DNA from: a virus
DNA: 64,000 nt
Strand: one strand, 5' to 3'
IMG/VR virus record: IMGVR_UViG_3300045988_079583
Location: 50,885-114,884 of that record
This document shows, one piece after another, positions 11,825-61,599 of this stretch. The translations under genes were made by a program, and so were the position numbers. The first letter of the stretch is position 1. Every line of letters begins with the position of its first letter. The notes beneath the pieces are model-generated. The model was not told the DNA's origin, searched no databases, and saw only the letters and a program-made list of their open reading frames with translations.

Positions 11825-12305
11825 TTCCATTAGTTTTTTAAAATTAATAACTTATCTATCAAAAAAAAAGAGTGGTTCCAATATCTGTGCTTCACCAGAT
11901 ATTTTCCCCACTCCCAATACTCCGAAGAGCTTGTACCGTTATTAGGTTGGCCAACCTCCCTTTTCATCTTGTTGAGAATTTGGGATAATAGTCACCAAGT
12001 TTAAAGATTACTTGTAACTGAAGCAAAGCTGAAATCCCGTTAAGGACTTCGTAACTCCTCCAACAACGTGGTTGGCGAGCTATTTTAGTAGGAAGCTAAC
12101 GCGCAGGCAAAGATAAAAGCAAAGTCTAAGACCTGACCGTACTAACAAAGACTAAGGCAAAGACTCTTATATATTATAAGAGTAATTTTTTTTTAATTTT
12201 GCACAGTCAGCGAATGAGTTGTCAGAAATCCAGTGATTTCTAATAGCAATTATTTATATTCCTGTTAAGTATAAATTGTTAGCTTCCTACAGAAAATCTT
12301 CTAAA

Positions 12306-13220
12306 TTACTTAGAAGAAGGATCGCCTTGTTTCTTAATCTCTTCGAAGATTCCTAGGAGATTCTTTGGCAAGGTAATTTTTAACTGTGAAATCCGCTCCT
12401 TTTCGGAGGTCTTCCAATTATTAAAGCGGCTTCTTAATTCTTGTATCTTAGAATTATATCTCTCATAATCAGCCTTAAATTCTGCAAGTCTTTCCTGATA
12501 TTCCTCTTCTCTAGTCATATCAATCTTATTTACAGTCTCTTTAAGTTCAGCTTTAAGAGCGTTTAATTCTTTCTCGTAGGAACGGTATATGTCTTGGAGA
12601 GACATAAACATATCATCTACCTTACTTACACTAATAGTAGGGTCTTGGTAATAGAGAATTAAATCTCTACCAGATCCTTCCTTATAGATAGGACAATTCT
12701 CAGCGGCATGGACATCCTTTCTAGCCTTACTGAAAGCCCCTTTAGGATGGATATATTTACCATAAGTAGAAGCAAACGCTTCAAGTCTTAGATACTTGTT
12801 TCGCTTATTGCCGTCCCAAGAATCTATAACTTCCTTCTCTTCTGCTCTCCGCAGAGATTCCGGATACTCAGGTTGTTCGGGGATTTCTATGCCGTTTTCC
12901 TTAGCCCATTTCTCAATAGGAGTAGCGGCAAGATAAGAAATCATCTCCTCTTTCTTTTTGATAGCTTCTCGTACCCAAGCACAGAAACTATTCATTTCAG
13001 CACATTTTTCCAAATCGTTCTTAATGAAGCCTATGGAAGTTTGCCCTACAGTCATTAGCTGTTTTTCTCCACCTCCAATAGAGGCTACAGATACTTGGTA
13101 AAACTTCACACCATTTAGACGCTCTGTGGCAGCCTGAATCATTTCCTGCGCAATATTAGCATAATAGTTAGCAGATGTGGAAGTTAACCCTTCGTTTCCA
13201 AAAAATACACTTTCTTTCAT
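12306..13220 (-). CDS. hypothetical protein with C-terminal coiled coil
   Basis: 304-aa ORF. Confidence 0.45.
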   Translation of the reverse strand: MKESVFFGNEGLTSTSANYYANIAQEMIQAATERLNGVKFYQVSVASIGGGEKQLMTVGQTSIGFIKNDLEKCAEMNSFCAWVREAIKKKEEMISYLAATPIEKWAKENGIEIPEQPEYPESLRRAEEKEVIDSWDGNKRNKYLRLEAFASTYGKYIHPKGAFSKARKDVHAAENCPIYKEGSGRDLILYYQDPTISVSKVDDMFMSLQDIYRSYEKELNALKAELKETVNKIDMTREEEYQERLAEFKADYERYNSKIQELRSRFNNWKTSEKERISQLKITLPKNLLGIFEEIKKQGDPSSK

Positions 13221-13411
13221 TTTGTTAATTTATCAATTACGTTTACTATAGACTGTTCTCCAGCTATAAAGCCAGACTTATGAGCATTTCTAATAAGTTT
13301 TTTCAAACTTTCTAGCTCTTCTTTTGATTTAAGAGTATTACTATTGTATATCTCTTCAAGTTCCTGTATATATCTTTCCATGACTAAAAATATTTAGTAC
13401 CCGAAGTGGCA

Positions 13412-14047
13412 TTACTCTAGAAGTATGCCGTACTTCCATATGTAGCCATAAGCATGGGTTATTTTATGATTGCAACAATCAGTGATATGTCTTTTGCAAT
13501 TAACAGTTTTTGCTAGACCATTATCTACAAGCCATTGAGCTGCTTCTTCTCTTCCCCAGAAGTGCTATATATAATTGCCAGCCATATCAAATTGATCAAT
13601 TTTCTTAGCAGACCCACCTCTGATTTTAATGTCATGAGCTTTCAATACTTTTCTTACAGTATCATCACTACATCCCACTTTCTCCGCAACTTTTTTGCAA
13701 GTATATCCCATATTGTACAGTTCGATTATCTCTTGATAATCATATAACTATGTTCCGTCACCACCCTTAGTAGCATTATAGCCTTTGGAGCCATAAGTTT
13801 CCAACTCTTTTATCCAATATACCTCTCTTTCTGAAAGTATGTTTTCGTCCTTTACATATTCTAATTCCTCTATTATAAAGTTTTCAACTCCATATTTATT
13901 CATAGCATCATATAATGGACGTTTTTCACATCTTTCTTTTCGAGAATCCTTGCAGTGTTCCTAAAATCTTTCCTATATAGTAAAGAGGGTTTTACCAACG
14001 TATCTTTTATTGTTGATAATATTTGTAATGCAATAGATATATCCCAT
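13412..14047 (-). CDS. GIY-YIG homing endonuclease (I-TevI-like) containing 3 in-frame TAG codons
   Basis: hand translation MGYIYCITNIINNKRYVGKT...REVYWIKEL...GYNATKGG; invisible in ORF track because TAG splits it; terminates at TAA. Confidence 0.7.
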
Positions 14048-14134
14048 ATCATAAACTATTTATAACATTATTAATAATTGATTGAATTAGCTTTACCCAA
14101 AACACACCACGTGGAGGTTTCAATCTTGTGTTTC

Positions 14135-14220
14135 TACCCGAAGTGGGACTCGAACCCACACGGCCCTTTCGGACCATCAGAGCTTAAATCTGACGCGTCT
14201 ACCAATTTCGCCATTCGGGC
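14135..14220 (-). tRNA. tRNA-Leu(UAA), type II
   Basis: cloverleaf by hand: anticodon stem TCAGA/TCTGA, loop TTTAAGC, long variable arm, T-loop TTCGAGT. Confidence 0.8.
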
Positions 14221-14328
14221 ATAATGACAGCTATTCTCACGAACCACTGTCGAGAATAATCCTAATTATTTCTTACTAGATTAGTCTCTAAATTGTTAAA
14301 TTCAAAGTTAAAATCCGTTAAGAAATGT

Positions 14329-14727
14329 TTATCTAGTTCGAACCACATTATAAACCCAAGATATATCGGCATAATCTACATAGATTTGGGAATTTCCATT
14401 ATTCTCAACTCTAAGTCTTAGAAATCCTTTATCATAGTCCTGGTCTAGGACTCTAAACTTCACCTGAGTTCCATTAGAATCATAGGGAGACTTGACTTGC
14501 TCTAAAACTTTGTATATTTGAGTTTCTTGGCTGTAAATTATAATTAGGTCATTGGATAGGTCAAATTTTATATTTATATCAACTGATTCCCAATCAGACC
14601 ATTTTGTCCAACGCCCATTATCAACTACTCTTACAGCAAACTCGGTAGCCTTAAACCATTGGGTTTGAGCTTGGACTGCTCCTACACAGAACAGCCCAAA
14701 CATAATTACAATAAGAATCCGTTTCAT
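14329..14727 (-). CDS. hypothetical secreted protein
   Basis: 132-aa ORF with signal peptide. Confidence 0.45.
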   Translation of the reverse strand: MKRILIVIMFGLFCVGAVQAQTQWFKATEFAVRVVDNGRWTKWSDWESVDINIKFDLSNDLIIIYSQETQIYKVLEQVKSPYDSNGTQVKFRVLDQDYDKGFLRLRVENNGNSQIYVDYADISWVYNVVRTR

Positions 14728-20342: not shown

Positions 20343-20383
20343 ATAGCCGAGACTGGGGGATTCGAACCCCAACCTTCACAGTG
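20343..20383 (-). other. tRNA 3'-half-like fragment (partial duplicate of tRNA-Asp 3' end)
   Basis: T-arm-like GGGGTTCGAATCCCCC plus TCTCGGC acceptor-like strand, but no D arm or 5' acceptor. Confidence 0.3.
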
Positions 20384-20455
20384 CCGAGAGTACCAGACTC
20401 GAACTGGTGACCTTCGCATAGACAGTGCACTATTCTACCACTGAACTAACCCTCG
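20384..20455 (-). tRNA. tRNA-Asp(GUC)
   Basis: D-arm TAGTTCAGTGGTAGAAT and anticodon loop CTGTCTA resemble E. coli tRNA-Asp; 5' end has unusual C1/G72 or an extra base pair. Confidence 0.65.
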
Positions 20456-20466
20456 GTGTAACTGGA

Positions 20467-21018
20467 TTACTCCAGACTAATTAAACCCTTCTCTAACATA
20501 ATATGGTGATTCGGACATAACCATACTAAATTATTCTCGTTGTTAATCTCCTTAATAAGAGTGTCTTCGTCAAATTCTAATATTCCTTTAAGATGATGTA
20601 CTTCAAGTATTGCATCAAATTCATGATTATGACAATATTGACATACTTTCTCACGTTCGGAACTTTCTAATACTCTACGAGCATTAGTCCTTATTTCTTG
20701 ACATTTAGATGATAAGTACTTCTGCCCAGATGTATAATAACCTAATGTTTTGTTACCAATTCCATTAAGTTCTTCCCAGCAACTACGACACATTTCTGAA
20801 TCTTTATGCTTAGGTTTACCACATCTAGGACATATCTTGTTTTCATCGTGCTTTATCCTACCTCTATTATTGTAAGAAGCAGCACACGAATGACTACAAA
20901 ACTGTTTCTTCCTCACATCTGCGACCCTCTGATTATCTAGTACTTCGATTACCTTACCACATTCCTTACAGTGGTTAGGATTCTCATAATACAATTTAAG
21001 AGATTGTTCTCGATTCAC
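20467..21018 (-). CDS. HNH homing endonuclease (standard code)
   Basis: CQYCHNHEFDAILEVHHL...NLVWLCPNHH HNH motifs; zinc-ribbon-like N-terminus. Confidence 0.65.
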   Translation of the reverse strand: MNREQSLKLYYENPNHCKECGKVIEVLDNQRVADVRKKQFCSHSCAASYNNRGRIKHDENKICPRCGKPKHKDSEMCRSCWEELNGIGNKTLGYYTSGQKYLSSKCQEIRTNARRVLESSEREKVCQYCHNHEFDAILEVHHLKGILEFDEDTLIKEINNENNLVWLCPNHHIMLEKGLISLE

Positions 21019-21155
21019 AGATAAGTTTAATTAATTTTAATGACAGTGTGATATGCAAGCCATTACACCACAGCCTCGAAAATGCAGGTATTTATCTCGT
21101 TACACCTGCGAGTCCGGCAATCCTTTCTTATATACCGCGTGAGCTGGCGGTTTTG

Positions 21156-21229: not shown

Positions 21230-21334
21230 ATTTCTCTTTGTATCACCGTGCAAAATGCACATTTGTAAGTATCTTTATATCAGGATACCTCCCGTGCCAG
21301 GAATTGCTACAAAGAATGTGGACCTAACGGAGTT

Positions 21335-21967
21335 TTATTTGTATTTCCATACATAACCTCCACAGGATTTTGCTTTTCCTACACAGCAATCAATTATATG
21401 ATTACTAGCAGAGTGTTTACTCTTTGATTTTCCTACCTCAACTAGCCAATCTGCAGCTTTCAGAGAACCAGGAAATTCCTAAATTTTGTTTCCAGCTTTA
21501 TCATACTGAACAACAATTCTACATTCACGTGCCTATTTATTAGCTCTTCCATCTATTCCATGAGCTTTTAACACCAAATACACAGTTTCCACTGAACAGC
21601 CTATCTTTTCTGATACCTCTTTACATAAATATCCTAAGTTATATAATTCAATAATTTCCTTGTAGTCATACAATATCTTCCCATCACCGCCTTTAGTAGC
21701 ATTATACCCATCTTTGTAGGACTACAATTTGTTTATCCAATATATTTCCCTATCAGATAGGGAGTTATCATCCGCTTCCTCTAGGCATTCAACTATGAAG
21801 TTCTCAACCCCGTACTTATTCATAGCATCGTATAACGGCCTCTTTTCACATCTTTCTTTCTAACTATCTTGACAATGTTCTTTAAAACGCGCTTGTGGGT
21901 TTTGTGTAGTCTTTCCTACATAGCGCTTATTGTTAATCAAGTTTGTAATACAATAAATATATCCCAT
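21335..21967 (-). CDS. GIY-YIG homing endonuclease paralog containing 4 in-frame TAG codons
   Basis: hand translation MGYIYCITNLINNKRYVGKT...DREIYWINKL...GYNATKGG; paralog of 13412-14047; terminates at TAA. Confidence 0.7.
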
Positions 21968-22051
21968 AATTTTCTTTTTTTTATTAAACATTTAGTTTTA
22001 ATCCAGAGTTCACCACGTGGAGGTAGTTTAATACGAACTCCTGGACCTAAC

Positions 22052-22556
22052 GGGAGTCGAACCCGTGTCCAAACAACCCTTGTTACAAGGATAACGTGCG
22101 TCTCATTTTTATTACATCAGCTAGTGAGTTCTAGCATTTAGATAGTTTTCATAGAAGAGCTAGATTCTTTGCAAGCGGACTCATCTAGCACCTTTCCGCT
22201 TAACTACACAACAAACTATCAAACTTAGAGGACCAGGGGTCTCTTCTCTACCACTCCATTTACGTTGGAGAACGCCTATTTGTAACCTATAGATAGGTAA
22301 TGGAGAATTTCAGCTTTACTAACCTTTGGCTTTCAAGTTAAGTACAGTGGCTCTATCATCCTTCTGCTGTACACCTCTTCTGTTTCTAGGTCTTCTCCGT
22401 TAACCCGACTCGATTAATATTTCTATTAATTAGCCACAGCTCACGCTGCCATTCTTACTTCGCTATAAGTAGCAATTATTGTTTTCCTTCGTTTAGAGAG
22501 ATTGCGCTCTACACGTCCTTATAATTCGTAATCGCCTGTCAAATCCAAGTAGGCCC
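22052..22556 (-). ncRNA. candidate tmRNA-like (ssrA-like) structured RNA
   Basis: about 500 nt without ORFs; 3' end is a T-arm (ACGGG-TTCGACT-CCCGT) plus TAGGTCC strand that can pair with GGGCCTA about 500 nt upstream; 5' region TGGGCCUACUUGGAUUUGACAGGCG resembles conserved tmRNA 5' end GGGGCUGAUUCUGGAUUCGACGGG; internal short ORF ends ...VRMAA-TGA. Confidence 0.3.
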
Positions 22557-24244: not shown

Positions 24245-24317
24245 TGGACACGCAGGGACTCGAACCCTATCTTCCGGTGTGCAAAACCAGCGCTCTAGCC
24301 ATTTGAGCTAACGGCCC
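24245..24317 (-). tRNA. tRNA-Ala(UGC)-like; acceptor stem does not pair as read
   Basis: good D arm, anticodon arm CTGGT-TTTGCAC-ACCGG and T arm, but 5' GGGCCGT is not complementary to 3' CGTGTCC; possible pseudogene or my misreading. Confidence 0.45.
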
Positions 24318-25276: not shown

Positions 25277-25558
25277 TTATTTCTCAGCCTGTTTAGAAAT
25301 TTCTAATGCGGCAGTTTCATCACTAATACATTCAGTAGGACATGGAATAATATTTCCGTGAATTTCTCTATGGCAATTGGCGCAGACTAGTATACATTTG
25401 TCCAATTCCTCTTTAACACGTTTCCATGAACGTGTATAACCCTTTGCGGATATTCCGAAGTCCTTTTCTTCTGAATTAATATGGTGAAACTCCAAAGCCC
25501 CAACATATTTGTTATATCCACAACATTGACACTTTCCACCTTTGTAAGCAATAGACAT
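25277..25558 (-). CDS. HNH endonuclease (standard code)
   Basis: CQCCGYNKYVGALEFHHIN...ILVCANCHREIH. Confidence 0.6.
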   Translation of the reverse strand: MSIAYKGGKCQCCGYNKYVGALEFHHINSEEKDFGISAKGYTRSWKRVKEELDKCILVCANCHREIHGNIIPCPTECISDETAALEISKQAEK

Positions 25559-25717
25559 AAGTTTTACTTTATCTCTTCTTCTCTATACTGCCTCTGCTTC
25601 ACATTTAAGACATTTCCATTTGGTTCTATTACCATCTTTTCGCTCTGCAAATTCAGTTTCTCCGTGAATCTAGCAGAACATAACTTCTCTCTTATTCATA
25701 ATATTACTTTTTAATAG

Positions 25718-25789
25718 CTGGGGCACATGGACTCGAACCATGATTCTTTGATTAACAGTCAAAAGTTCTGACCTTTGAACTATACCCCA
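25718..25789 (-). tRNA. tRNA-Asn(GUU)
   Basis: anticodon stem TTTGA/TCAAA, loop CTGTTAA; U1-A72. Confidence 0.75.
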
Positions 25790-26043
25790 ATAGTTAATTT
25801 CTCTCCACGACATAGATAAGTACCCCTTTGGTACTTACCTCTAGTAGTATTTCTTACTCAAATCCTCTATAGGGAGGTGGGATAGTTCCAGAAACTAACC
25901 ATGTGTAGCTTTTAGAACTCTGTTCAAAATACCACTTAGCAGCTTTCTTCACAACATTAATTACCTTTTTCATAACATTAAAGTTTAAAATTGTTAATAA
26001 TTAATCTAATTCAGAGCCACAAAAGGAGTTTAGTTGCGGAGGT

Positions 26044-26113
26044 AGGATTCGAACCGTTTATGACGATTTCTAGGTTATGAGCCTAGCGAGATGACCAACT
26101 TCTCTACTCCACT
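26044..26113 (-). pseudogene. degenerate tRNA-like sequence with CAU anticodon loop
   Basis: D arm GAGA/TCTC and anticodon arm CTAGG-CTCATAA-CCTAG present, T stem and acceptor do not pair. Confidence 0.25.
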
Positions 26114-26119
26114 ATATTG

Positions 26120-26193
26120 ACTCGGTGGTCAGATTCGAACTGACGAACTAAGGATTTGCAGTCCTAGCCATTAAACCACTCTGGTACACCGAG
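26120..26193 (-). tRNA. tRNA-Cys(GCA)
   Basis: acceptor CTCGGTG/CACCGAG, anticodon loop CTGCAAA. Confidence 0.65.
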
Positions 26194-26197
26194 ATTG

Positions 26198-26278
26198 TTC
26201 CGATTAAAGGATTTGAACCCCTGACCTCCCGCTGATGTTTTGGATGCGGACGCTCTAACCAGACTGAGCTAAATCGGA
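26198..26278 (-). tRNA. tRNA-like gene with canonical acceptor, D and T arms but a 13-nt anticodon loop (ATCCAAAACATCA); anticodon unassignable
   Basis: acceptor TCCGATT/AATCGGA, D arm GCTC/GAGC, stem TCCGC/GCGGG flanking a 13-nt loop, T arm AGGGG-TTCAAAT-CCTTT. Confidence 0.35.
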
Positions 26279-27754: not shown

Positions 27755-28308
27755 AATCTAGAGTGGGATTCGAACCCACGAAACACGGTTATTTAATATT
27801 TTTACTGCCATAATTTTCAGTCTAGGAATGACAATTAGGACAAAGGATTTGCAGATTCTCTATTCTATTATCATTACTAATACCATTAATATGGTGTAAC
27901 TACAAAGAAATAGGCTTATTGTTCCACTATGTTATCCCACATATTTCACATTTACACGTCTTATATCCCTCAGAAATTAACCGTTTCTTTAATCTATCAG
28001 TATTCTAATAAGTTGAGTTTTCAACTAGAATCTCTTCTATAGGTATTTTCTTCTGAGAAGGCTAAGAAGTTCCTTTGTTCCATCCCTAGCCTTTAAAATG
28101 GGAATAATCTATATTAAGAGAATCCAATTTCTTATGAATTACTCTTATATTTCCTGAATTTGCTGGCCTCTACATAAGACGACAAACATCAGAAAATGTA
28201 AAACACTATTTAACAAAGTGTTCTATTTCTTCCTTAGAAAATTCTGGGTATTTATTCATATTTCTTATTTTTTATAACCGTTCCCTTAGACCGCTCGGGC
28301 ATCTAGAC
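27755..28308 (-). other. split tRNA-like gene: 5' half (28270-28308) and 3' half (27755-27789) separated by HNH endonuclease gene inserted in the anticodon loop
   Basis: 5' half GTCTAGA-TG-CCCG..GGG-A-ACGGT; 3' half ACCGT-GTTTC-GTGGG-TTCGAAT-CCCAC-TCTAGAT; acceptor and anticodon stems pair across the insertion. Confidence 0.45.
27789..28259 (-). CDS. HNH homing endonuclease with 8 in-frame TAG codons (156 aa)
   Basis: hand translation MNKYPEFSKEEIEHFVK(TAG)CF...CKCEICGIT(TAG)WNNKPISL(TAG)LHHINGISNDNRIENLQILCPNCHS(TAG)TENYGSKNIK-TAA. Confidence 0.65.
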
Positions 28309-42494: not shown

Positions 42495-42782
42495 GTAACG
42501 GTTGTTCTTATCTTGGGAGTAGGAGACCTAAGTCTCCCAGTATGCACAATTGTTTCTCAACAACCTGCACCACTATGTACGATAAAAGAAGATGAATTAT
42601 CCTGTGCCTACAATCATTTAAGATTGTCTTCGATTGTTAGTACAATCTCACAATACTTTGCCTTATCTCACGATAAGACACCTCTATTCATAAGAGATGC
42701 TCTGCATTAGTCTCAGGGCGTACCCATTATAATCTTTAACTGCAACAGAGTCTACAAGTAGTTGTAGTCCTCAAATACCAAG

Positions 42783-42853
42783 TTCCCCATTCTGGACTCG
42801 AACCAGAATCTCCTTCTTTAGAGGAAGGCGCAATAGCATTATACTAATGGGGA
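42783..42853 (-). tRNA. amber suppressor tRNA, anticodon CUA, tRNA-Gln-like (copy 1)
   Basis: acceptor TCCCCAT/ATGGGGA (U1-A72), anticodon stem CCTTC/GAAGG, loop CTCTAAA (anticodon CUA reads UAG), 4-nt variable loop, T arm TCTGG-TTCGAGT-CCAGA. Confidence 0.65.
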
Positions 42854-43575
42854 AATCCTATCTTGACAACTAGTATAAGATAGGAGATTATTTAGTATGT
42901 TTTCCAGACATACAACGTTATCAACGTTCACTAAATTCTGAGGTAGCTAATCTCAAAACTTGCGAATAGATTCGAGATGGAAAATGACGCCTTATGAGCG
43001 TCTCTCTTACTATCTAGCCTATATCTATCTGATGGCTTACTTCAGGCAACTTCCAATATTGCATACGAATACTTATAGGTGATATACTTTGGTCTACCAG
43101 CATATCAGTGGTACTTTGTAATATTGCCATAAGTGACCATTCATATGGCTCAATCCTCTTGTAATAGTGTTCAAGTTTGCGAATATACACATTACAATCG
43201 TAGCAGTTATTTTCGGATATTGGGTTCTTCTGCGTAACCCGCTTTTTGTTACCTTTTTATAGGCAAATGTTAGAGTAAATAATCATTGTAGTATGTGTTA
43301 TAAAACTCATCCTACTGGCGATTTTTTGAGAACTGGAGAAAGTCGGAAAATCGGCTGTCTTTTGCGTGGACAATTTCTCTCAGCCCTTACCATATTTTCA
43401 CGTGCAACAATAGTCCCAATCTACATTAGAACCACATTACTTAATATAATACTAAAATAAAATAACTACGACGAATTGATTTTGAAGTTTTTGTTTTGTT
43501 TTGTTGTTTTCTCCGTTAACCAATGGTCCGATGATGGAGTTCATGTGGGTATCTTATTTTGAAACCCATAATACC

Positions 43576-49624: not shown

Positions 49625-50839
49625 ATGGCGAAAATACAATTTGATCCAGAGTTAATGTAGCATATCAAGACTATATATGGAGACGCAGAGTTAGACGGAA
49701 GAACTTTACAACAGTTGCATTAGACTTGGCAAAGTAATCCGAACTCTATTAGAAATACTGCATAGTAGAAGAAAAGAAGTGCTGTGCCAGCTATACAACA
49801 AAAACCTATATTAGGATTAAAGCTGTCTACTCCTACTATTCCTAAGAAAATAAATGCACCTTAGCAACAAATTCAAAACGACGACTTAAGAGGAGTCTAG
49901 GGGTTTGGTACGGCATTTAGAGAAGCCAGAAAGAGAGGACTAACTCAATTCAAATGGGGGAAAGGAGTGTATGGAACATAGTTAGCTAATGGAAAGAAAG
50001 CAACAGTAGAGGTAGGAACTCCAGTAATGAATAATCCCTATGTTACATATAGTCAAGACGGAAAAAGAGCTACTACGTACCAAAATCAAGTAGACTAGGA
50101 AACTGGAGAGCATACTGGAACTATCCAAGAACAATGGATAAAGCCGCCTACAACTAATATGTATGGGCAGAAACTAACTCCAGAATAGCTCAAAAATTAG
50201 AGAAGTTGGGAACATATACCAAAGGCAACTGCTAGATAGCAACGAGTTAAATATCAACAAGGAGGAGCAATGGCTAATTAGGAAGAATTACAAAAAGCAT
50301 TTATGGCATACTTAATACAGGATGCCGCAGCACAAGGAATACAATTACAATCTGAGTAGGATTTAGAACAATATGCTCAGCAATTAGGAGAAGACGGAAT
50401 TAAAGCCAAATACCAGGAATTTATGCAAAAAATGCAAGGTGGGGTTATGGCTAGATTAGGAGCTAAGCTTGAGTACTATAAAAAATTAAAAGGAGTTTGC
50501 CCAGAAGGGGAAGAGCTTGTTTATTTTAAACAAGGAGGGAGAATATGTAAAGCCTGCCAGAAAGCTTAGAAAGGTGCCAAGGTAAAAGGTAACGAGGTAG
50601 ACAAATTTAAGAAAGGAAGAGCACAGTATAAGAAAGATATGAAATCAGCGAAAGATGAAGCTTCCAGAGATTCTATATCTATCAATAAGTATAATGATTA
50701 GGAAACCATGTCTAATAAAGGACATAAAGGAAACTTCCAAAAGGGAAAATGGGTTCCTGATAGAAAGCAATATACTAAAAAGGATGCTTGTGGCTCTAAA
50801 ATGAAAGTAAGCAAGTGTGGCTCTAAAATGAAGAAGTAA
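49625..50839 (+). CDS. hypothetical protein, first gene of TAG-recoded structural module (404 aa, many in-frame TAG)
   Basis: single frame open from ATG 49625 to TAA 50837-50839 if TAG is read through; Gln-rich; no TAA/TGA in frame. Confidence 0.5.
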
Positions 50840-50866
50840 GAAAAGATTGTCGAATGTTAATGATTA

Positions 50867-51433
50867 ATGATTATGAATGTATTTAACTATAACACTTTAA
50901 CTAAATAGTTAGAAATAAATGAACCAGAGATTCTTCTAGTTAAAGAGTTCAAAGCTTTACTACAAAGAGATAAATCTGTGGAAAAGGATAGAGCAATTAG
51001 AGAACTATCATACATTTATTTAGCTATTGATTGGAAGAGTCCGTATAGCTAGTACTCTGAATATGAAAGGCACGATGAAGCAATTAATGATTCTGGATTA
51101 ACAGAATCAGAATTTAATGATCCGATATTTAGGGAAGCATGTAGAAAATATAGAGCATTATAGGACTCAAATAAATCAATTAAATTATTAGAAGCTGCTA
51201 GAAGAGCTGCTGACTAGTTTATTGATTACTTCGATACTATTGTAGACTTAAATGAACGTGACACTAATGGAAAGCCAGTATTCTCTGCTGAGAAAGTAAT
51301 GAAGGAAATGGCTAGCCTTCATAAAGTTCACGAAGAATTAATTACATTAGAAGATGAGGTTAAAAAAGAACTTACTGAATAGTCTACCGTTAGAGGAGGG
51401 GCTACAGATGGTTTTGATCCTGGAGAATTTTAA
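50867..51433 (+). CDS. hypothetical protein upstream of terminase (possible small terminase subunit), TAG-recoded
   Basis: 188 aa with several in-frame TAG; position immediately 5' of terL. Confidence 0.35.
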
Positions 51434-51435
51434 TT

Positions 51436-53796
51436 ATGCCAAGAAAGAAAAAGATATTACCTGATGAACTATAGACTATAGTAGATTAGGTAAGAGAAAA
51501 AGAACATAAAGAAGATGCTGTAGAGGCAAGAGAGCTAGTATAGAAAATAAGAGAAGAAAGGGTCAAAAGTGCAGACTATTGGGATGTCAAGAAAGGAGAC
51601 AAGATAGATGTTTTTGACCCTACTTTGTCTTATGAGATAACTGGCTATAGACCTATTGATGAAACGCATGGTTTGGACTTTAATCCCGAATGGTTCACCG
51701 AAACCAGAGAAGTATACAGAAAGACTGGGAAGTATTGTCCCTACTTAAAAGACAGTAAGAGATACAATGAATTTTGGAAAGAGTAGTACAGAAGATGTAA
51801 ATATGGAATGACAGTTAATGGTTATACTATTACTGGAGATAACTATTTCTTCTTAAATTTCTATTAGCTTCCTATTATTGATGATAATAAAGCATCCGGT
51901 GAAGGAACTAATAGTGACTTCCCTATATTCTTTGCATCCCATTACATGTTCTTCCATTACTTACAAATGGCTAGAGTACTACATAGACATGCAGCTTTAA
52001 TGAAGGCTCGTTCAATCGGATTCTCAGAAATAAATGCCTCACTATCCGCTCGTATGTATTCTGTAATTAGAAGAAGTAGAGTAATGATTACTTGCTTTAA
52101 TGATACCTTCCTTAAAGGTACATTTAGTAAGTTTGATAATGCTCTAACATTTTTAAATACTTGCACAGGTGGAGGATTCTTTAAGCTTCGTCTAATTGAC
52201 CAGGATTTAAGAAAGAAGTCTGGTAAGTAGGTTAAAGTAAACGGATAGTTTGAAGATGTTGGATTTAAATCAGAAGTAGTAGGAATAAATGGAGCTAAAC
52301 CATCTAATATTCGTGGAGACCGTGTTGACTTATTAATATATGATGAAGCAGGGTCTTGGCCAGGATTAGATACTGCTGTGGTACAAGGACAAGAACTTTG
52401 TGAAGTCTAGGGTAAGCCTCGTGGAACAATGTTGTTTGGAGGTACTGGTGGTGATATGGGTGCTCCATTAGCAGGTCTTAAAAAGATTTACTATAATCCA
52501 AAAGCTTACAAAGTTCTTCCCTTTAGACATAATTATACTCAAGATGGGACTACTATTGAGAGTGGATTCTTTATTCCATATTTTGTACAGTCTTTGAACT
52601 CCGAATACATGGATCATAGAGGTGTATGTAATACCGTAGAATATAAGAAGTATCTGTAGGAAGAAAGAGATAATCTATTAGCAGTACCCGATGACTATTT
52701 AAAGAAGTGTGCTGAACGTTGTTGGAATGCAGAAGAGGCCTTCAATCTAGAAGGTGTTAACAAGTTTAACAAAATTCTTATTTCTGATCAATTAGCTAAT
52801 ATAAGACTAAAGAAAATAGGTCCCAGACCAGAATGTGGTTATATAGATTACTTCTATAAAAATAATAAACACACTGCTGATAACATTGATGGATTTAAGT
52901 GGATTCCTAATACTAAGGGAAAGGTAAAGATTCTGGAACATCCAGTATGGTCTGACCTATATAAGGAGTAGATGGATAAACTTAGATAGGAAGCAGAGGA
53001 AAGAGGAGAGGAATTTGAAGCACCTGTATATAAAGAAATGCATAATCTTTATATTGCAGGAATAGACGGTATTGATATAGGAGCTAATTAGACCTCGAAG
53101 GAAACTAAAGATCCTTCTGACTTCTGTATAACTATTAAGAGAAGGGCATTTGGTATGAGTGAGCCATAGTATGTAGCAATGTATAAGGACAGACCTGGAG
53201 ACATTCGAGAGGCTTACAAAATAGCTATGTGTTTACTTAGATACTACAACTGTAAGGTAAATATAGAAGCAACTCGTGTTGGTATGATTACCTGGGCTAG
53301 AGAAAAGAAATGTTTGAATTACTTTATGAAACGTCCTAGAGCTACTCTTACTGATGTTAAAAATGGAACTACTAAATAGTATGGAACTCCAGCTACTAAA
53401 ACTATTATAGAACAACACACTGATCTAACTGCTGCGTTTGTGGAAGATTATTGTCATACTATATGGTTTGAAGAAATGTTGGAATAGCTTACTGGATATA
53501 ATGACGAGAATAAAGGTAAGTTCGATATTATAGCAGCTATGGGTATGACAGAATTAGCAGATGAAGAGTTGTCTGGAAGATAGCCTATAGTTGTGGAAAA
53601 AGAAGTTGAATTGTTCAGGGATTTTGGTTATTATTACGATGAGAGAGGAATAAAAAGATTTGGAGTTATACCAACTAGAGAAACTCCAGAATTAAATATG
53701 CAAGACGACGAATACGATGACCCATACAGAATTGAAACAAGTGATCCTAGAGTATATGAGAGACTTATACCAAATGGAATATATAGGCGGACTTGA
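51436..53796 (+). CDS. terL: terminase large subunit, TAG-recoded (786 aa, about 18 in-frame TAG)
   Basis: Walker B-like VDLLIYDEAG; nuclease motif YIAGIDGIDIGAN...DPSDFCITI; ends TGA; track shows only fragments (51946-52230, 53179-53379, 53593-53796). Confidence 0.7.
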
Positions 53797-54054
53797 GATT
53801 GAGGATTTGAATCCAGTTGGTTACAAAATATCTTTTAACTTTGACAGGTCTGAGATGCCATTAGTAATCATAGCTGATTTACCCGATGATGAATTTCTGC
53901 CTTTTATTAAAGAAGAATTAAGAAGTAGGAAGTTATAGAGAGTTAAGTATTATAACGCCACTAAGCTTCCTCCAGAACAACATAATACATGTTATGAAAG
54001 AGAAAGAATTGATAGACAAAACAAACGAGGCTATTGCGGAACTTGTGTATGATA
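53774..54054 (+). CDS. possible small overlapping ORF with 1 TAG
   Basis: extends track ORF 53717-53938 through TAG to TGA; overlaps both terL end and portal start, may be spurious. Confidence 0.2.
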
Positions 54055-56168
54055 AATATGAGCTTTAGAAAGCTTATAATTATTATAATGGTAAAAGAGA
54101 TCCAGAATAGTTTCGCTATCTTGAAGAGAATTTTGGAATAGGCAGTCCTACATCAGTAGAATTTACACCACTACTTAAGAAGCATGTAGATGCTTTAGTA
54201 GGGGAATATCTAGGAACTCCAATACTCCCGAAAGTCTCTTGCAAAGATTCAGATACTATCAGTAATATAACCAGAGAAAAATAGCTAGAGATAACTAAAG
54301 GAATAGTTAAGTTTTTAAAAGATCACTTAAGTAATGCTATCTTAAGCTTTATTGACGGAAAAGATATTACTGATAAAGCTGTAAAGACTCAGCTAGATAA
54401 GGTTATATAGGATATTGATTAGTCATTCATTTCTCAGTATGAAATTGCTGCGCAGAACATTATTCACTACCTAATGCAATCTAGGGAAACTGATCTTATT
54501 ACTAAGTTGCGGTAGTTATTAACTGACTTACTAATTACTGGATACACATTCTTTAGAGTAAAGTCTTCTTTCTCCGGAACTAATGTGGAGATAGAGGTTC
54601 TTAACCCGTTAAATACGTTTGTTGATAGAAATCCAGAATCTCCATATGTCAAGAAATCATATAGAGTTGTTATTAGAAAATGGATGAGTAAAAGCCAAAT
54701 ACTAGCTAAGTATGGTAAAGAAATATCTAGAGAAGACTTAAAGAGGTTAAAAGATGAATGGAGAGCAGATGATTCTGCTGCTGTATACAGAAGAGTTTAT
54801 GGAGATGTTTGTACAGTGGTTAATGAAGATCAAAATCATGAGACCATTCCTGGGTATCCAGATAATGAATATAGTGCTCATAGATTTTAGTTAATTCCGG
54901 TCTACGATGTAGAGTGGATAGAGACTGATGATGATTTCAAAATGCAGAGATACAATACTATAAGGATAGGAGAGGAAATCTATATTCTTAGAGGATTAGA
55001 CAAGACTGCAATGAGGTCTAAAGACGATCCTAACTCTTGTTCATTATCAGTAAATGGAGTTTATTTTCTAAATCGTTCTCAGTAGCCATATTCTTTAATA
55101 CTTAAGTGTGCACATCTACAGGATAGATATGACTTACTTAACTATTACAGAGACAACTTGATAGCTAATAGTGGAACCTCAGGAGTTATTATGGATATGT
55201 CATTACTTCCTACTAACTTAGGAGTACATTGGCCAGAAAGAGTATAGAAATGGCTAGCTTATAAAAAAGCTGGTATTCAGTGGGTTGATACTACTTAGGA
55301 GGGTAGAAATGACAATGGAAACGCTCCTTTAAATACTATCTTTAATGGATTTGATGACACCCTTAAAGCGTAGGCTGTATAGGCTATTGAGTTAGCTATT
55401 CAATCAGTAGAATAGACTACATCATCTATAACTGGAGTATTTAGGGAAAGACTTAATGGAATAGAGACTCATGATGCTGTAACTAATATTAAGCAAGGAG
55501 TCGCTAACTCTTATATAGTAACTAAACACTATTTCCAACAAATGGACTTGATAACTTGTGAAATATTATTAGATAGTCTTAATTAGGCTAAAGTAACTTA
55601 CAAGAAAGGGTTAACTGGAACTATTATATTGGGAGATAAGTATTAGTAGATATTTACTGCCCTTCCTGAATATTTCACAATGACTGATTTTGACATTCAT
55701 ATAACCTCCAGCACTGAAGTTATGGAAGATTTATAGACTATTAAAGCTATGATTCCGGAGTTCCTTAAGAGTTAGCAAATGGATGCTGGTATAGTTTTTG
55801 AAGCATTAACAGCTAAGAGTTTGACAGACTTAAAGTACAAGGTTAAAAAAGCTATGCAGGTTTAGAAAGAAGAGAACAATCAATTACAATAGTTGTAGTA
55901 GAAGTTGGAAGAAACTTCATAGCAAGCACAACAACTACAATAGGAATTGGAGAAAGCTTAGTAGAAAATAGAAAGGCTAGACGAACAAAAACTTGGACTA
56001 GAACAGTAGAAGATGCAACTAGAGTATAAGGTTAATTGGCTTAAAGCTCAGTCTGATTCTACTTACAAAGATAGACAAATGGATATTGAAGAGAAGAGAA
56101 CTGAAATAGAGTTAGCATAGCTTCATGACGGAAATCCATATAACGATAAAGTAAGACAAATACATTAA
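53994..56168 (+). CDS. portal protein, TAG-recoded (724 aa)
   Basis: position after terL; portal-like N-terminal region (AYNYYNGK...), size; C-terminal Gln-rich coiled coil generated by TAG codons. Confidence 0.55.
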
Positions 56169-56169
56169 T

Positions 56170-57039
56170 ATGGCTACAGCAGGTACAATAGTATATAATA
56201 AAGATTAGCAACAAATATATCCCATTTCTCATGCAGAGGTGGTAATTAGTAATGCTTCTGGAAGTAAGTCAGACGTGGAAGACAACCTTATAAAATTATG
56301 GAAAAAGGTCTCAGAATTAAGTGGAGACTAGGAAGCAGCTAGTAATATCATGGTAGTAGTTACTTATTGTAAAACAAATACCAGAGATGAATCTGAAGTA
56401 AGAAAGTTATCATCATGGAGTGATATTTTTGAACTACCAGACTCAGAAAGACCATATGTTTGGAAGAAAACTTTATATACATATAAAGGAGACACAGCTA
56501 AACTTAATGAGATTTACGAAATTGTTGCTACAGATATTGCTGAAAAAATTCAGAATATCTATATTGCAAGATCAACTGGGGTTGCTCCAGTTATTACTTA
56601 TCCAATACTAAAGGATGGATATGGAGATCCTATATTAGACTCTGAAGGAAATACTTAGGAAGATTTGACTGCCTTTGACAATAAATTACCAGAAGGCTGG
56701 TCAGAAACTCCAGTTAGTATTGGTCCAGCTACTCCATATGTATTTATATCAACACGTAAGAGAGTAGAAGGATTATGGAAAAGATATTCTGAACCAGCTC
56801 AATACGGTAGGTGGGCATTTGACAGTTAGTTAGAGTTACGATATACCATTACTTCTGGAGATAAACCAGCTGTTAATACTACAAGTGACGATCCTGGAAG
56901 TTAGTGGTCTAGCGATACTCCAGATAATTTTACTGGAAAAATGTGGATGATTACTGCAACATCAGTAAACGGAGTATTGAATAGTGATGAAAATAACGTT
57001 AGATGGCACGGTCCTCATTTGATGTCAATTATACAATAA
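56170..57039 (+). CDS. hypothetical structural-module protein, TAG-recoded (289 aa)
   Basis: open from ATG 56170 to TAA 57037-57039 with TAG read-through. Confidence 0.45.
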
Positions 57040-57770
57040 TGGAATTTAGTATTGATATACATACCCAGATTACTGGGGAAATAACTATTGAAGACTTCTC
57101 TAAAGAATATGGATAGTATATTGATGAAGATTTAGAAGTAGTAACTTCTTACGACTCTTATAAGTATAGTGAGAGTGCTACTCTAAATACTATCATCAAG
57201 GTAAGTATAGGGGATGCCACACTAATAGATGTCCTTTTAAATGACCATACAGAAGATTTAGATTCATGTACATTTAAAGTAAAAGAGGATGGATATTATG
57301 TGGTAGATCATATAATACTTCCTAATATGAAGTGGTATGAAAATTCATCTGATGAATATAAGGAATACTACGAAACTATCTATGTTACAGATGGGGAGAA
57401 ACTATATAAAGAAGTAGAAGGAGAGTTAGAAGAGTGTACAGTAAAGGAAATTCTAGAAAGAAACATAGAAGGCACTACTATCAAGAAATGTAAGGTCGAT
57501 GTATTCTTTACTGGGAATTTACAATAGTGCTATATTAATTATTGTAAAAAATTATTTGATGGTCTCCTAAATAAATGTGTTACCAATGAACATGAGGCAG
57601 ATATTTTTGCCAGAGATTTTATTTGGATGACTCTCAACATTATAGATTATTTAATAGGCTTTAAACAATTCATGGAAGCTGAAAGGTTACTAGCAATGTT
57701 CCGCACTTGTGGAGGATTCTGTAATACTCGCTATCATGGACATAAACATATAAGTTGTGGATGCTCTTAA
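57039..57770 (+). CDS. hypothetical structural-module protein, TAG-recoded (243 aa)
   Basis: TAATG overlap with previous gene; ends TAA. Confidence 0.45.
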
Positions 57771-57925
57771 AAGAAAGGCTATTAAAAGGTATGAAGAGTT
57801 TCTTGGAAGAATTAAGAAAGGATATAGACCAGATTATCAAGATATTTTGAATTTAATCTGTTTTATTAATCTACCTGTAAAACTAGATAATCACGAATTT
57901 ATTAAATAGCAACTATTAAATCATA

Positions 57926-59515
57926 ATGATACAGCCTATTTACACTTCGGTAAGCAATGCTGATATAAAGCCTTGTGGAAAGAAAGGACATTTAATAAAA
58001 AGTGAGCCTATACCACTTCTAAGAGATAATTACTTAGGAGAATATAGAACAGAACTAGAAAGAGCTAAGGTTAGAAAAAACTTAGGAATTGCTGATGAGT
58101 AGAGTCTTCTTTGGGGAAATATTAGTGGAACCATAGAGGCTTAGAAAGACTTGGTTTAGTATATTGAACAAAAATGGACATATACTAGCGATGTTGCAGA
58201 AAATATTAACACCGTAAAAGATGCATTAGACTATGCATTATTTTTTATTAGTTAGTATGAGGCTAATACTGAGGAAATAGAAGAGATAAAGGTTGATATA
58301 AGTAATATTAGGACTAGTATTTAGGTATTAGGAGAAGATCTGAAAAGAGAGATTGATACTAATAGGGAAGGACTAAATAACTTATCTTAGGATATAATCG
58401 AAATTAATTAGGCAATATCAGACCTCAACACTGCTATAGAAAATATAGATGTTGATAAGAACATTCTTAATTGGATTAAAAACAACCTTTAGAACTCTAA
58501 GACTGTAGAGATAAAGGAGGATAATACTATAGAAGTCATTCTTTCTAAGTAGGATAATAATGCTATTCATTTAATCGAATAGGAATTACCTCCTACAGAA
58601 GAAGGAGAGGAGCCTTCTACTATAACCCTTCCAGGAATTTATGTAAAGAATCTAGAACCTTAGTTAGAAGAAGCTTAGAAATCTATAGGAGAAGTATAGA
58701 AAGCTCAAGAAGAGACTAATGAAAAGGTTAGCACTAATAGCGAGAGTATTACAAATATCTAGACTAGTCTAGAAACTATAGCTACCTATTAGACAGAACT
58801 TCCTGATGATACAACTTCTACTGTTATAGAAGGTACTACCGTTGAAAAATTAAAAGGGAAACCATTTAATGAAATCATAGATACTTTACTATTCCCAACA
58901 GTAGTTAGAGATTTAATATATCCATAGTTGTATTATAGCTTTGCTTCCCAAATTGTGGAAGTAGGAACTGCGCTACTAACTCCAACCTTAACTTTCGTAA
59001 AAAATGATGCAGGAGAAGAAACTGACAGAGAAGAAGTCATTACTTATAACGGTTCTCCTATAGAGTCTGTTACATATGATTCTATTGGGATTTATACTCA
59101 TTCTGGTACAGTGAATTATGCTGCTGGAGAATACTTAGTAAACAATAAGGGAGAAGTTACAGATAAAAGGGTGGAAGCTGGTTCTATATCAGCAACTGCA
59201 CAAGTAACAGCTACTTATCCTTGGTATTCTGGAAATACTGATGGATTGATAAAATAGTCCCTAGTTCCATTTAATTAGGCTTCTGGCACTATTACATTCT
59301 CATTAAGTGGTAAGGCTATTATAAAATTACCAGGAAGTAATACTCAGCTAAATTCCTTCACAGTAGATGGAGGATTGGGATATTTGAATGTCGATTTAAA
59401 TGGTTGGGAAGCTTCTACTGAACAAATAAATGGATTCCCATATAAAGTATGGACTAAGAAGGATACCTACTCTTCAGCACTGCCTCACCAAATTAACTTT
59501 ATTCTATCACAGTAA
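57926..59515 (+). CDS. tail fibre-like protein, TAG-recoded (529 aa)
   Basis: long Thr/Asn/Glu-rich protein with coiled-coil segments, many in-frame TAG; ends TAA. Confidence 0.45.
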
Positions 59516-61383: not shown

Positions 61384-61388
61384 ACAAG

Positions 61389-61598
61389 ATGGGAACAATT
61401 TATATTGACGGACAGTTTAAAAGCTCTGCTAAGCCTGTAAAAGTTGTTGGTGGCAGTGTAGGAGGGTCTGGAGTAGATCCTGATACTCTCAAGAACTATG
61501 CTACTAAAGCAGAACTTCAGAAAGCTGTTGAGGACTTAACTGCTTCCATAGAAGGAATAGATCATGATGTAGTTGAAGAAACTTTAATAATATAGTAA
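61389..61598 (+). CDS. small Gly-rich protein
   Basis: track ORF 61389-61595 extended through terminal TAG to TAA. Confidence 0.35.
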
Positions 61599-61599
61599 T

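Follow-up and report, generated by a model that had tools for sequence, protein, structure and literature searches.

Theta ribozymes and GIY-YIG homing endonucleases form probable mobile cassettes at the 3' ends of phage tRNA and tmRNA genes

Positions 50,885 to 114,884 of the IMG/VR virus record IMGVR_UViG_3300045988_079583, a stretch of 64,000 nucleotides referred to here as the window, contain two short GIY-YIG endonuclease genes, one behind the 3' end of a tRNA-Leu(UAA) gene and one behind that of a transfer-messenger RNA (tmRNA) gene. What kind of unit can lie exactly at the end of a stable-RNA gene and be bracketed by a second copy of that end? A sequence-only reading had proposed a compact mobile unit, made of a leader and a GIY-YIG open reading frame (ORF), that sits exactly at tRNA and tmRNA 3' ends between duplicated tRNA termini. 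This description was borne out, and the observation on the cassettes and their repeats was confirmed as real and non-random. Both units combine a GIY-YIG homing endonuclease of the I-TevI/Seg type with a theta ribozyme, and each cassette is probably a selfish homing-endonuclease element that carries the ribozyme as its 5' module.

All cassette features lie on the minus strand, and "downstream" refers here to lower window coordinates. The order was the same in both cassettes: the discriminator of the tRNA-Leu(UAA) or tmRNA, G1 of a theta ribozyme of 55 to 60 nt, a short leader, an ORF with GIY-YIG and helix-turn-helix (HTH) modules, and a second copy of the last 12 to 16 nt of the tRNA or tmRNA. 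The inserted segments measure 725 nt (cassette 1) and 708 nt (cassette 2) and are 57% identical in DNA and 63% in protein. In cassette 1, the tRNA-Leu(UAA) gene occupies 14135 to 14221 (ARAGORN; Rfam tRNA, 57.5 bits at 14135 to 14220), with discriminator A at 14135 and no encoded CCA. As had been reported, TACCCGAAGTGG occurs exactly twice in the window. The proximal copy of this repeat 1, at 14135 to 14146 (sense CCACTTCGGGTA; tRNA positions ∼62 to 73), is the last 12 nt of the tRNA and comprises 4 nt of the T stem, the acceptor 3' strand, and the discriminator. Ribozyme 1 (14080 to 14134, G1 at 14134) is followed by an A/T-rich leader (14048 to 14079) and by the gene for endonuclease 1 (13412 to 14047; 211 aa; TAA stop at 13412 to 13414), with in-frame TAG at codons 25, 29, 100, and 161. 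The distal copy, at 13398 to 13409, begins 2 nt past the stop, and the flank common to empty-site genomes picks up right after it.

In cassette 2, the tmRNA gene extends from 22042 to 22556 (ARAGORN; Rfam RF00023, 56.3 bits against a gathering score of 47), with discriminator A at 22042. A second repeat was present as claimed, but its tmRNA-side copy had been placed 10 nt off: TGGACCTAACGGGAGT (sense ACUCCCGUUAGGUCCA) lies at 22042 to 22057, from T-loop position ∼58 to the discriminator, rather than at 22053 to 22066. Ribozyme 2, recognized with RF02682, covariance model R1, and a strand-pairing scan, covers 21982 to 22041 with G1 at 22041. Endonuclease 2 (21335 to 21967; TAA stop at 21335 to 21337) has 210 aa from a conserved MGYIY start, an in-frame upstream ATG at 21991, and TAG at codons 36, 82, 145, and 163. 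The distal copy, TGGACCTAACGG-AGT at 21319 to 21333, starts 1 nt past the stop (TAA-A-ACTCC...) and has 15 nt, one G fewer than the proximal copy. Two relatives carry a perfect 16-nt repeat, and the window's distal copy has therefore lost one G.

The 14-nt motif CACCACGTGGAGGT shared by the two leaders had been described as containing a palindrome and lying ∼55 to 60 nt upstream of the start codon. Its position at 14105 to 14118 and the spacing in cassette 1 (58 nt to the ATG) were as described, but the second occurrence is at 22011 to 22024 rather than at 22021 to 22034, and the distance to the conserved ATG of cassette 2 is 44 nt. Loci sharing the 14-mer were gathered from viral contigs, and their sense strands were aligned. 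At these loci the motif was always found between two pairs of arms whose sequences differed while their complementarity was kept, and the strands followed the order P1, P2, ACC-UCCACGU-GGU, P1', GG, a short spacer ending in CUAA, and P2'. A reading as promoter or operator was rejected, as the palindrome lies inside the P3-L3-P3' segment of a covarying pseudoknot. The leader is accordingly predicted to fold into the nested double pseudoknot of a hepatitis delta virus (HDV)-like ribozyme with a minimal P4.

Both copies follow the theta-type order P1-P2-P3-L3-P3'-P1'-P1.1-(minimal P4)-J4/2-P2', with a P1 of 6 to 7 bp and a P3 of 3 bp. The stems of ribozyme 1 are P1 GAAACAC/GUGUUUU, P2 GAUUGAA/UUCAAUC, P3 ACC/GGU with L3 UCCACGU, and P1.1 GG; ribozyme 2 has P1 GGAGUUC/GAACUCU and P2 UAUUAAA/UUUAAUA around an identical P3-L3 core. 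G1 of P1 (14134 and 22041) pairs with U in each copy, and among 10 aligned examples the pair was G-U in 7 and G-C in 3. The putative catalytic C at the first position of J4/2 (C-N-A-A), which in ribozyme 1 is the complement of 14090, lies within CUAA in ribozyme 1 (GCUAAU) and in ribozyme 2 (ACUAAA) alike and was invariant in the alignments. The layout also matches the published theta table, |P1|J|P2|ACC|T|CC|ACGT|GGT|P1'|GG|...|CTAA|P2'|, and the core ACCTCCACGTGG was counted 1439 times in the supplementary table of the same paper (PMC10879173). From the placement of G1, the ribozyme is predicted to cut exactly at the tRNA or tmRNA 3' end, with a site no more than 1 nt from it (tRNA to 14135 and ribozyme from 14134; tmRNA to 22042 and ribozyme from 22041).

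Rfam run at gathering thresholds returned no ribozyme here, and the HDV matches became visible only in E-value mode. RF02682 (HDV-F-prausnitzii) matched ribozyme 1 over its full length with 28.7 bits (E = 0.004), below the gathering score, and ribozyme 2 with 25 bits (E = 0.056), starting at 22041. Because these scores are sub-threshold, the copies were not filed under RF02682, a model that expects a P4 hairpin that minimal ribozymes lack. Model R1 gave 74 bits for ribozyme 1, a match by construction since this sequence is in its seed alignment, and 27.7 bits (E = 6e-6) for ribozyme 2. Together with a relaxed pairing scan it detected only these two ribozymes in the 64 kb. As P1 and P2 were out of register in a MAFFT alignment of 12 ribozymes (A1), a gapless subset of ten (A2) was used instead. 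Here 12 pairs in P1 and P2 showed double changes, and 100% of cells were paired compared with 27 to 43% for slid partner columns, although only the covariation is informative, since the scanner that chose the set demanded pairing. P3 and P1.1 were invariant across cassettes, and a hand-collected ribozyme set agreed on the covariation. A second, putative HDV-like variant, with P3 GCC/GGC, L3 UUCUCGU, and GU in place of GG after P1', was seen in four loci (L195, L197, L203, and L207), where it lies between the tRNA and the GIY-YIG start. It adjoins the 3' ends of genes for tRNA-Cys, tRNA-Thr, and suppressor tRNA, and genes for related endonucleases lie downstream of it.

The two ORFs, read with TAG as Gln, both matched PF01541 (GIY-YIG) above the cutoff (E = 2e-11 for endonuclease 1 and 3e-13 for endonuclease 2) as well as phage homing-endonuclease PHROGs. 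The catalytic domain of I-TevI (1mk0) was matched with an E value of 5e-9, and the invariant columns were Y5, Y16, G18, R27, H31, E75, and N91, including the catalytic Arg27, Glu75, and Asn91. HTH_28 and HTH_7 matched above the cutoff at residues 103 to 137 of endonuclease 1, which constitute a C-terminal DNA-binding module. The sequence-only reading had judged the unit closer to tRNA-targeting integrative elements than to free-standing homing endonucleases. This could not be upheld, as no recombinase or transposase family appeared among the domain and profile matches of the unit, whose sole ORF is the I-TevI-like GIY-YIG endonuclease. The nearest precedent is instead T4 SegB, because it recognizes the tRNA T arm. 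SegB is a free-standing GIY-YIG homing endonuclease of the T4 tRNA cluster (Brok-Volchanskaya et al., NAR 2008, PMC2330249). Its 27-bp site starts with the T-arm motif GGTTCRANTCC, several cuts are made near the tRNA 3' end, many different tRNA genes are cut, and segB is absent from related phages (PMC2330249).

Whether such units move was examined in relatives of the window, where empty sites were found at both the tRNA-Leu and the tmRNA locus. In the GenBank scaffold MT836666, the tmRNA 3' end runs straight into the sequence lying beyond the window's distal repeat, a clean empty site with one repeat copy. A third cassette of the same design, with a 16-nt repeat, adjoins tRNA-Met in MT837398, and the window's own tRNA-Met (26033 to 26113) is uninterrupted. 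The census covered 49 related 22-kb loci and other fetched loci. The tRNA-Leu(UAA) site was empty in ∼30 and filled in ∼10, with four downstream-flank haplotypes among the filled sites; the tmRNA site was empty in ∼34 and filled in 3, in two unrelated downstream contexts; and the tRNA-Met site was empty in 32 and filled in 6, with two flank haplotypes. The haplotypes of filled sites were also found among empty ones. At otherwise conserved sites the unit, from G1 to the stop codon, was present or absent as one block, so that repeats without insertion polymorphism were not what the relatives displayed: they are polymorphic, and empty sites hold a single repeat copy.

Comparison of filled sites showed that this block had spread horizontally. 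Between the window and one relative (L001), the ribozyme and ORF were 99.4 to 100% identical and the flanks only 72 to 75%, with the drop right after the repeat. As the two tRNA-Leu genes differ in the variable arm, the common tract must start within the last 27 nt of the tRNA. Two tmRNA cassettes (L166 and L129) were identical at 712 of 713 positions with unalignable downstream flanks, and in L122, 99.5% identical to the window overall, the endonuclease region reached just 97.8%. Conversion tracts accompanying the ∼700-nt unit do not exceed 27 nt on its left side or 16 nt on its right. A loss-only history, in which an ancestral cassette was repeatedly and precisely deleted, was rejected on the evidence of 99 to 100% identical cassettes amid flanks that are 72 to 75% identical or unalignable. 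An assembly artifact was likewise rejected, as the same structures recur in many IMG/VR contigs of separate sample origin and in GenBank records that come from Mexico.

Two other rearrangements were seen at the tRNA-Leu locus. L121, with flanks 99% identical to the window, is without a 2.5-kb block (window 11900 to 14457) that contains the tRNA-Leu(UAA), cassette 1, and neighboring genes, and the alignment segments overlap by 10 nt in L121. In L156, at ∼13488 to 13680, the window-type tRNA-Leu is present as a 3' fragment between a complete tRNA-Leu of another allele and the ribozyme cassette downstream. Its identity to the window is 99.6% downstream and 85 to 89% upstream of this segment, which therefore indicates a recombination junction inside the tRNA.

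The repeats were surveyed in two endonuclease-anchored searches and one ribozyme-anchored search. Repeats were recovered at nine targets: tRNA-Leu(UAA) (12 nt), the tmRNA of this lineage (16 nt), a second tmRNA (L057, 14 nt), three tRNA-Met sites (c3, represented by L002/L104, 16 nt; L118, 16 nt; L066, 17 nt), two tRNA-Pro sites (L250, 12 nt; L255, 14 nt), and a CUA-anticodon tRNA (L286/L294, 15 to 16 nt). At all nine, the repeat matches its own tRNA or tmRNA up to the discriminator, and its first nucleotide falls within the T loop or within the 3' strand of the T stem (positions ∼57 to 62). The distal copy either lies 0 to 5 nt from the stop codon or provides the last bases of the stop. Chance was rejected as an explanation: only 0.06 matches to repeat 1 with up to one mismatch are expected in the window, and the pattern recurs at nine targets. 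The T-arm motif GGTTCRANTCC (GGTTCGANTCC) was found directly 5' of the repeat, or overlapping it, in most targeted tRNAs and in both tmRNAs, and the tRNA-Pro of L250 carries the variant TGTTCGAGCC.

Duplication of the tRNA end was not universal. No repeat was found with cassettes at tRNA-Leu(UAG), Gln, Thr, His, Cys, and some Pro and Met genes or with two HNH_3 cassettes, and the Leu(UAG) cassette is a simple insertion relative to its empty sites. Repeats were also sought beside the L092, L120, and L123 cassettes and beside ribozyme-less GIY-YIG genes adjoining tRNA-Cys and other tRNAs, and none was found there. Repeat-less cassettes indicate that ordinary homing, with both flanks homologous, also occurs.

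The linkage of ribozyme and endonuclease extends beyond the window. In this lineage, 14 of 15 theta ribozymes were followed by an endonuclease gene or its remnant. In a dereplicated motif-anchored sample, a GIY-YIG or HNH_3 endonuclease gene followed 12 to 13 of the ∼30 ribozymes adjacent to a tRNA and none of the 38 that did not adjoin one. Decayed forms were recovered as well, including a frameshifted endonuclease (L033), truncated copies (L063 and L163), and two internal deletions (L066 and L310) that kept the ribozyme, a few terminal codons, and the repeat. At one tRNA-Met site (L163) a solo ribozyme ends in a junction of the kind expected if a full cassette had lost the sequence between two CTAA tetramers.

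A mechanism can be proposed from what was observed: how the cassettes are built, their presence or absence as whole blocks, their horizontal spread with very short conversion tracts, and the rule that the repeats follow. The cassette would be cotranscribed with the tRNA, and self-scission would leave the tRNA with a 2',3'-cyclic phosphate at its 3' end, prior to the addition of CCA, and the endonuclease mRNA with a 5'-OH. A cassette inserted into a tRNA transcription unit would therefore do no harm, and the ribozyme would take the role that a self-splicing intron or an intein has for other homing endonucleases. This step is supported by where G1 is located and by four other theta ribozymes that were active in vitro (PMC10879173). 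With four in-frame TAGs, translation would need the phage amber-suppressor tRNA, so that the endonuclease is proposed to be made late. Like SegB, it may recognize the T-arm motif of an uninterrupted tRNA or tmRNA gene and introduce its break within the interval from the T loop to the tRNA 3' terminus. Such a shared target would allow one family to colonize Leu, Met, Pro, and suppressor tRNA genes as well as tmRNA genes.

The repeat would then represent a target-site duplication of the stretch from the break on the T-loop side to the tRNA end. By the simplest route, the strands would be broken 12 to 17 nt apart, each 3' overhang would anneal to one repeat copy of a filled genome and prime copying of the cassette, and the recipient's own segment would come to lie on both sides of it. 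Repeat copies that are both recipient derived fit the nine targets, and the dispensability of downstream homology fits the L166/L129 pair. Since the repeat would be the only homology needed on the right-hand side, homing is proposed to be independent of downstream sequence. After fixation the endonuclease would decay, and a solo ribozyme could stay.

Several points weigh against this interpretation. The self-scission of the RNA and the cutting of the DNA are both read from sequence, and Rfam's HDV models remain sub-threshold, with both copies scoring under the 44-bit gathering threshold of RF02682. The gapless alignment A2 was chosen by a scanner requiring pairing. About half of the ribozyme-endonuclease cassettes lack the repeat, so a staggered break cannot be obligatory, and to our knowledge the GIY-YIG enzymes studied so far leave 2-nt overhangs rather than 12 to 17 nt. 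In the endonuclease-anchored surveys, about half of this GIY-YIG family lay within 220 nt downstream of a tRNA on the same strand, often without a ribozyme. As many of these relatives sit 19 to 40 nt after a tRNA without any ribozyme, a ribozyme is unnecessary for residence beside a tRNA. The mechanism also does not account for the initial move of a cassette onto a different tRNA species and the placement of G1 directly behind its discriminator, where selection for a functional tRNA is the likely filter. A ribozyme-less example was seen at 4192 to 5384 of L002 (MT837398), where a different tRNA-Cys of 86 nt precedes the GIY-YIG gene by 20 nt and ∼145 nt of unassigned sequence lies behind it. 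The whole replaces the window's tRNA-Cys and a tRNA-like gene (26120 to 26277), and the arrangement was present in at least 17 contigs.

Alternatively, an ordinary double-strand break in the T loop or T stem, at positions ∼57 to 62, might be used, the mobile unit comprising a copy of tRNA nt 58 to 73 together with the ribozyme and the endonuclease. The proximal copy would then be donor derived, and the recipient's own 58-to-73 segment would become the distal copy through annealing to the donor's distal repeat or through end joining. Such a route explains why the repeat has its left edge in the T loop, why the right boundary is sharp, and how a cassette is transferred between downstream contexts that are unrelated, and it needs just the known chemistry of 2-nt overhangs. 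It also resembles I-TevI, which cuts at a distance from its insertion site, and SegB with its proximal cleavage points. A chimeric, mispaired tRNA and a mismatched repeat are, however, predicted at each target that differs from the donor, and none was seen. Both copies matched the local tRNA at each of the nine targets, among them two tRNA-Pro alleles whose T stems differ, and this speaks against a donor origin. No informative case of a polymorphism separating donor from recipient in the two copies was found among the surveyed loci. This explanation is considered unlikely, and the staggered break with recipient-derived copies is retained.

It was also considered that the ribozyme is a resident tRNA 3'-processing device of benefit to the phage, beside which an endonuclease gene happened to land, so that the two do not form one unit. 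Theta ribozymes have been described as tRNA-maturation elements (PMC10879173), and no endonuclease gene was detectable downstream of 17 of the ∼30 tRNA-adjacent ribozymes. Against this, ribozyme and endonuclease were absent together at empty sites, the high-identity tract spans both as one block, and the window has ribozymes at just 2 of its 28 tRNA and tmRNA genes, both of them endonuclease bearing. The solo ribozyme at tRNA-Met is moreover derivable from a full cassette by a 4-nt microhomology deletion. A chance neighborhood of this kind is therefore very improbable.

Still less credence is given to the idea that the distal repeat is kept for a role at the RNA level instead of being a scar or a homology arm. 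It would then tag a 3' end in the manner of a tRNA, act as a decoy, or direct processing of the endonuclease mRNA or of the gene downstream. The distal copy always abuts the stop codon and is perfectly conserved while the sequence just after it diverges, but this conservation is accounted for by the whole block having spread recently. The repeat is missing from many cassettes, the window's copy of the tmRNA end carries a 1-nt deletion, and no complementary 5' acceptor strand for a minihelix lies nearby. A search of the window found no strand complementary to the 12-mer, and a tRNA-like minihelix formed from the distal repeat was rejected. An integrase- or transposase-type tRNA-targeting element, with the repeats as att sites or transposase target-site duplications, can practically be dismissed: the direct repeats of the tRNA 3' end do look like attL/attR and the endonuclease HTH matches resolvase-type models, but no recombinase or transposase domain was found in a 700-nt unit filled by the ribozyme and the GIY-YIG ORF, and the att-like core, present at both ends with a length that varies from 12 to 17 nt, is missing from sister cassettes.

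The preferred reading, a homing element with a ribozyme as its 5' module, combines features of several known systems. Theta ribozymes are minimal HDV-like ribozymes beside phage tRNAs, of which 1753 tRNA-associated examples were published, with a proposed role in phage tRNA processing and maturation and in code switching; endonucleases, homing, mobility or mobile elements, and repeats are not mentioned there (Kienbeck et al., Nat Commun 2024, PMC10879173). The copies described here share with them the sequence core, the segment layout, the cleavage site at the discriminator, the absence of CCA, and occurrence in a TAG-recoded gut phage, and differ in forming the 5' module of a mobile endonuclease cassette. 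With SegB, the endonucleases share the GIY-YIG type and a gene among phage tRNA genes, and the several SegB cuts span the repeat interval. SegB has neither a ribozyme nor a flanking repeat of the tRNA end, and it drags neighboring tRNA genes along by coconversion, whereas the conversion tracts found here were extremely short. Similarity to Seg proteins was weak (SegE_GIY-YIG, E = 2.5e-4, below the cutoff).

I-TevI and the other endonucleases of introns and inteins have a homologous catalytic domain and follow the same logic, in which a self-removing RNA or protein element makes the insertion neutral. Unlike an intron or intein, the RNA element here would cleave once, without splicing or religation, and would therefore work only at the 3' end of a stable-RNA gene. 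R2 and other non-LTR retrotransposons carry an HDV-like ribozyme at their 5' end and reside in rRNA genes (cf. PMC11331408). In R2, as is predicted here, a ribozyme of the HDV fold at the 5' edge of a selfish element in a structural-RNA gene cuts the cotranscript at the junction, but R2 moves via RNA with its own reverse transcriptase, while the cassette has none and would home as DNA. In twin-ribozyme group I introns, the small ribozyme GIR1 lies directly upstream of a homing endonuclease ORF, as here, and shapes the 5' end of its mRNA (PMC2219692). GIR1 differs in residing inside a splicing intron of eukaryotic rDNA and in forming a lariat cap; the ribozyme described here stands alone and would also form a tRNA 3' end. 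With tRNA-targeting integrative elements, finally, the cassettes share an insert bracketed by direct repeats of the tRNA 3' end and an intact tRNA. They differ in their length of ∼700 nt and their variable and optional repeat, and in the lack of an integrase; for want of a recombinase they were not filed with these elements. Nothing linking theta or HDV-like ribozymes to phage homing endonucleases or to these cassettes was found in the full-text literature, a search that left subscription journals uncovered. A paper on zeta crAss-like phages reports that homing-endonuclease ORFs differ between close genomes. The ribozyme as a neutralizing module, the repeat-bounded and context-independent spread, and the decay to solo ribozymes appear to be undescribed.

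The genomic setting bears on when the endonucleases may be made. The window has a G+C content of 36% and carries 27 tRNA genes and one tmRNA, nearly all on the minus strand (ARAGORN and Rfam). Its closest relatives are human-gut phage contigs of 180 to 190 kb in IMG/VR and two unannotated GenBank scaffolds. Late genes on the plus strand, from ∼49.6 kb (49625 to 63420), have 13 to 28 in-frame TAG codons per gene, and as two tRNA(CUA) genes are present in the window, TAG is read as a sense codon. Within the minus-strand genes of the block from 1 to 47 kb, TAG was nearly absent except in endonuclease genes, with 4 in-frame codons in each GIY-YIG ORF and 8 in an HNH ORF at 27789 to 28259 (minus). 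With the rest of the block nearly free of TAG, these selfish genes seem to depend on the late code switch for their translation. A RAGATH-14 RNA (42882 to 43054, minus; 166 bits, above the gathering score) lies just upstream of the amber-suppressor tRNA(CUA) gene at 42782 to 42853, one of two in the window. RAGATH motifs owe their name to an association with self-cleaving ribozyme genes.

Endonuclease genes are numerous in this tRNA array, where two further HNH-motif ORFs, at 25277 to 25813 and at 27789 to 28259 on the minus strand, bring the count between 13 and 28 kb to at least five. Two tRNA matches were reported by Rfam and not by ARAGORN, at 24245 to 24317 (39.5 bits) and 26198 to 26278 (51.6 bits), both on the minus strand. 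A tRNA-Asp 3' fragment between the two cassettes was indeed present (20346 to 20381, minus), but its attribution to duplication by a cassette of this kind was rejected. It is the 3' half of a tRNA-Asp(GUC) gene broken in the anticodon loop, with the 5' half at 21041 to 21078. The insert holds an HNH endonuclease ORF (20467 to 21018; HNH_2 Pfam match, no TAG) and an intact, different tRNA-Asp (20384 to 20455), all on the minus strand. The two halves are contiguous as an intact tRNA-Asp(GTC) in eight relatives, and the split form was found in 26. By this arrangement, the insert is a putative HNH homing endonuclease that brings its own replacement tRNA-Asp.

It is conceivable, and is put forward tentatively as somewhat less than an even prospect, that theta ribozymes arose as, and in many cases still act as, the carriers of an unrecognized class of homing elements, in which a ribozyme joined to a GIY-YIG or HNH endonuclease gene invades tRNA and tmRNA 3' ends and stands in for the group I/II introns and inteins of other systems. 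Many of the solo tRNA-associated theta ribozymes catalogued from gut phages would then be relics of decayed cassettes, and not devices that phages evolved to mature tRNAs or switch codes. Homing endonucleases persist in self-splicing introns, in inteins, or between genes. If the reading proposed here is true, a ribozyme as neutralizing module would add a third strategy of persistence, and theta ribozymes would gain an evolutionary rationale unlike the published one of tRNA maturation and code switching. Homing normally needs long flanking homology and coconverts the flanks, and the repeat-bounded, context-independent transfer is unusual in this respect: the repeat would serve as portable homology, enabling the element to home at any location of the tRNA regardless of the downstream sequence. 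The cassette might also yield useful tools, namely a nuclease directed to the T arm and a module that forms precise tRNA 3' ends. For the phages themselves, recognition through the T arm would explain how one endonuclease family is spread across many tRNA species and tmRNA, and it would account for the mosaic tRNA arrays and for the suppressor tRNA mattering for genes outside the late block.

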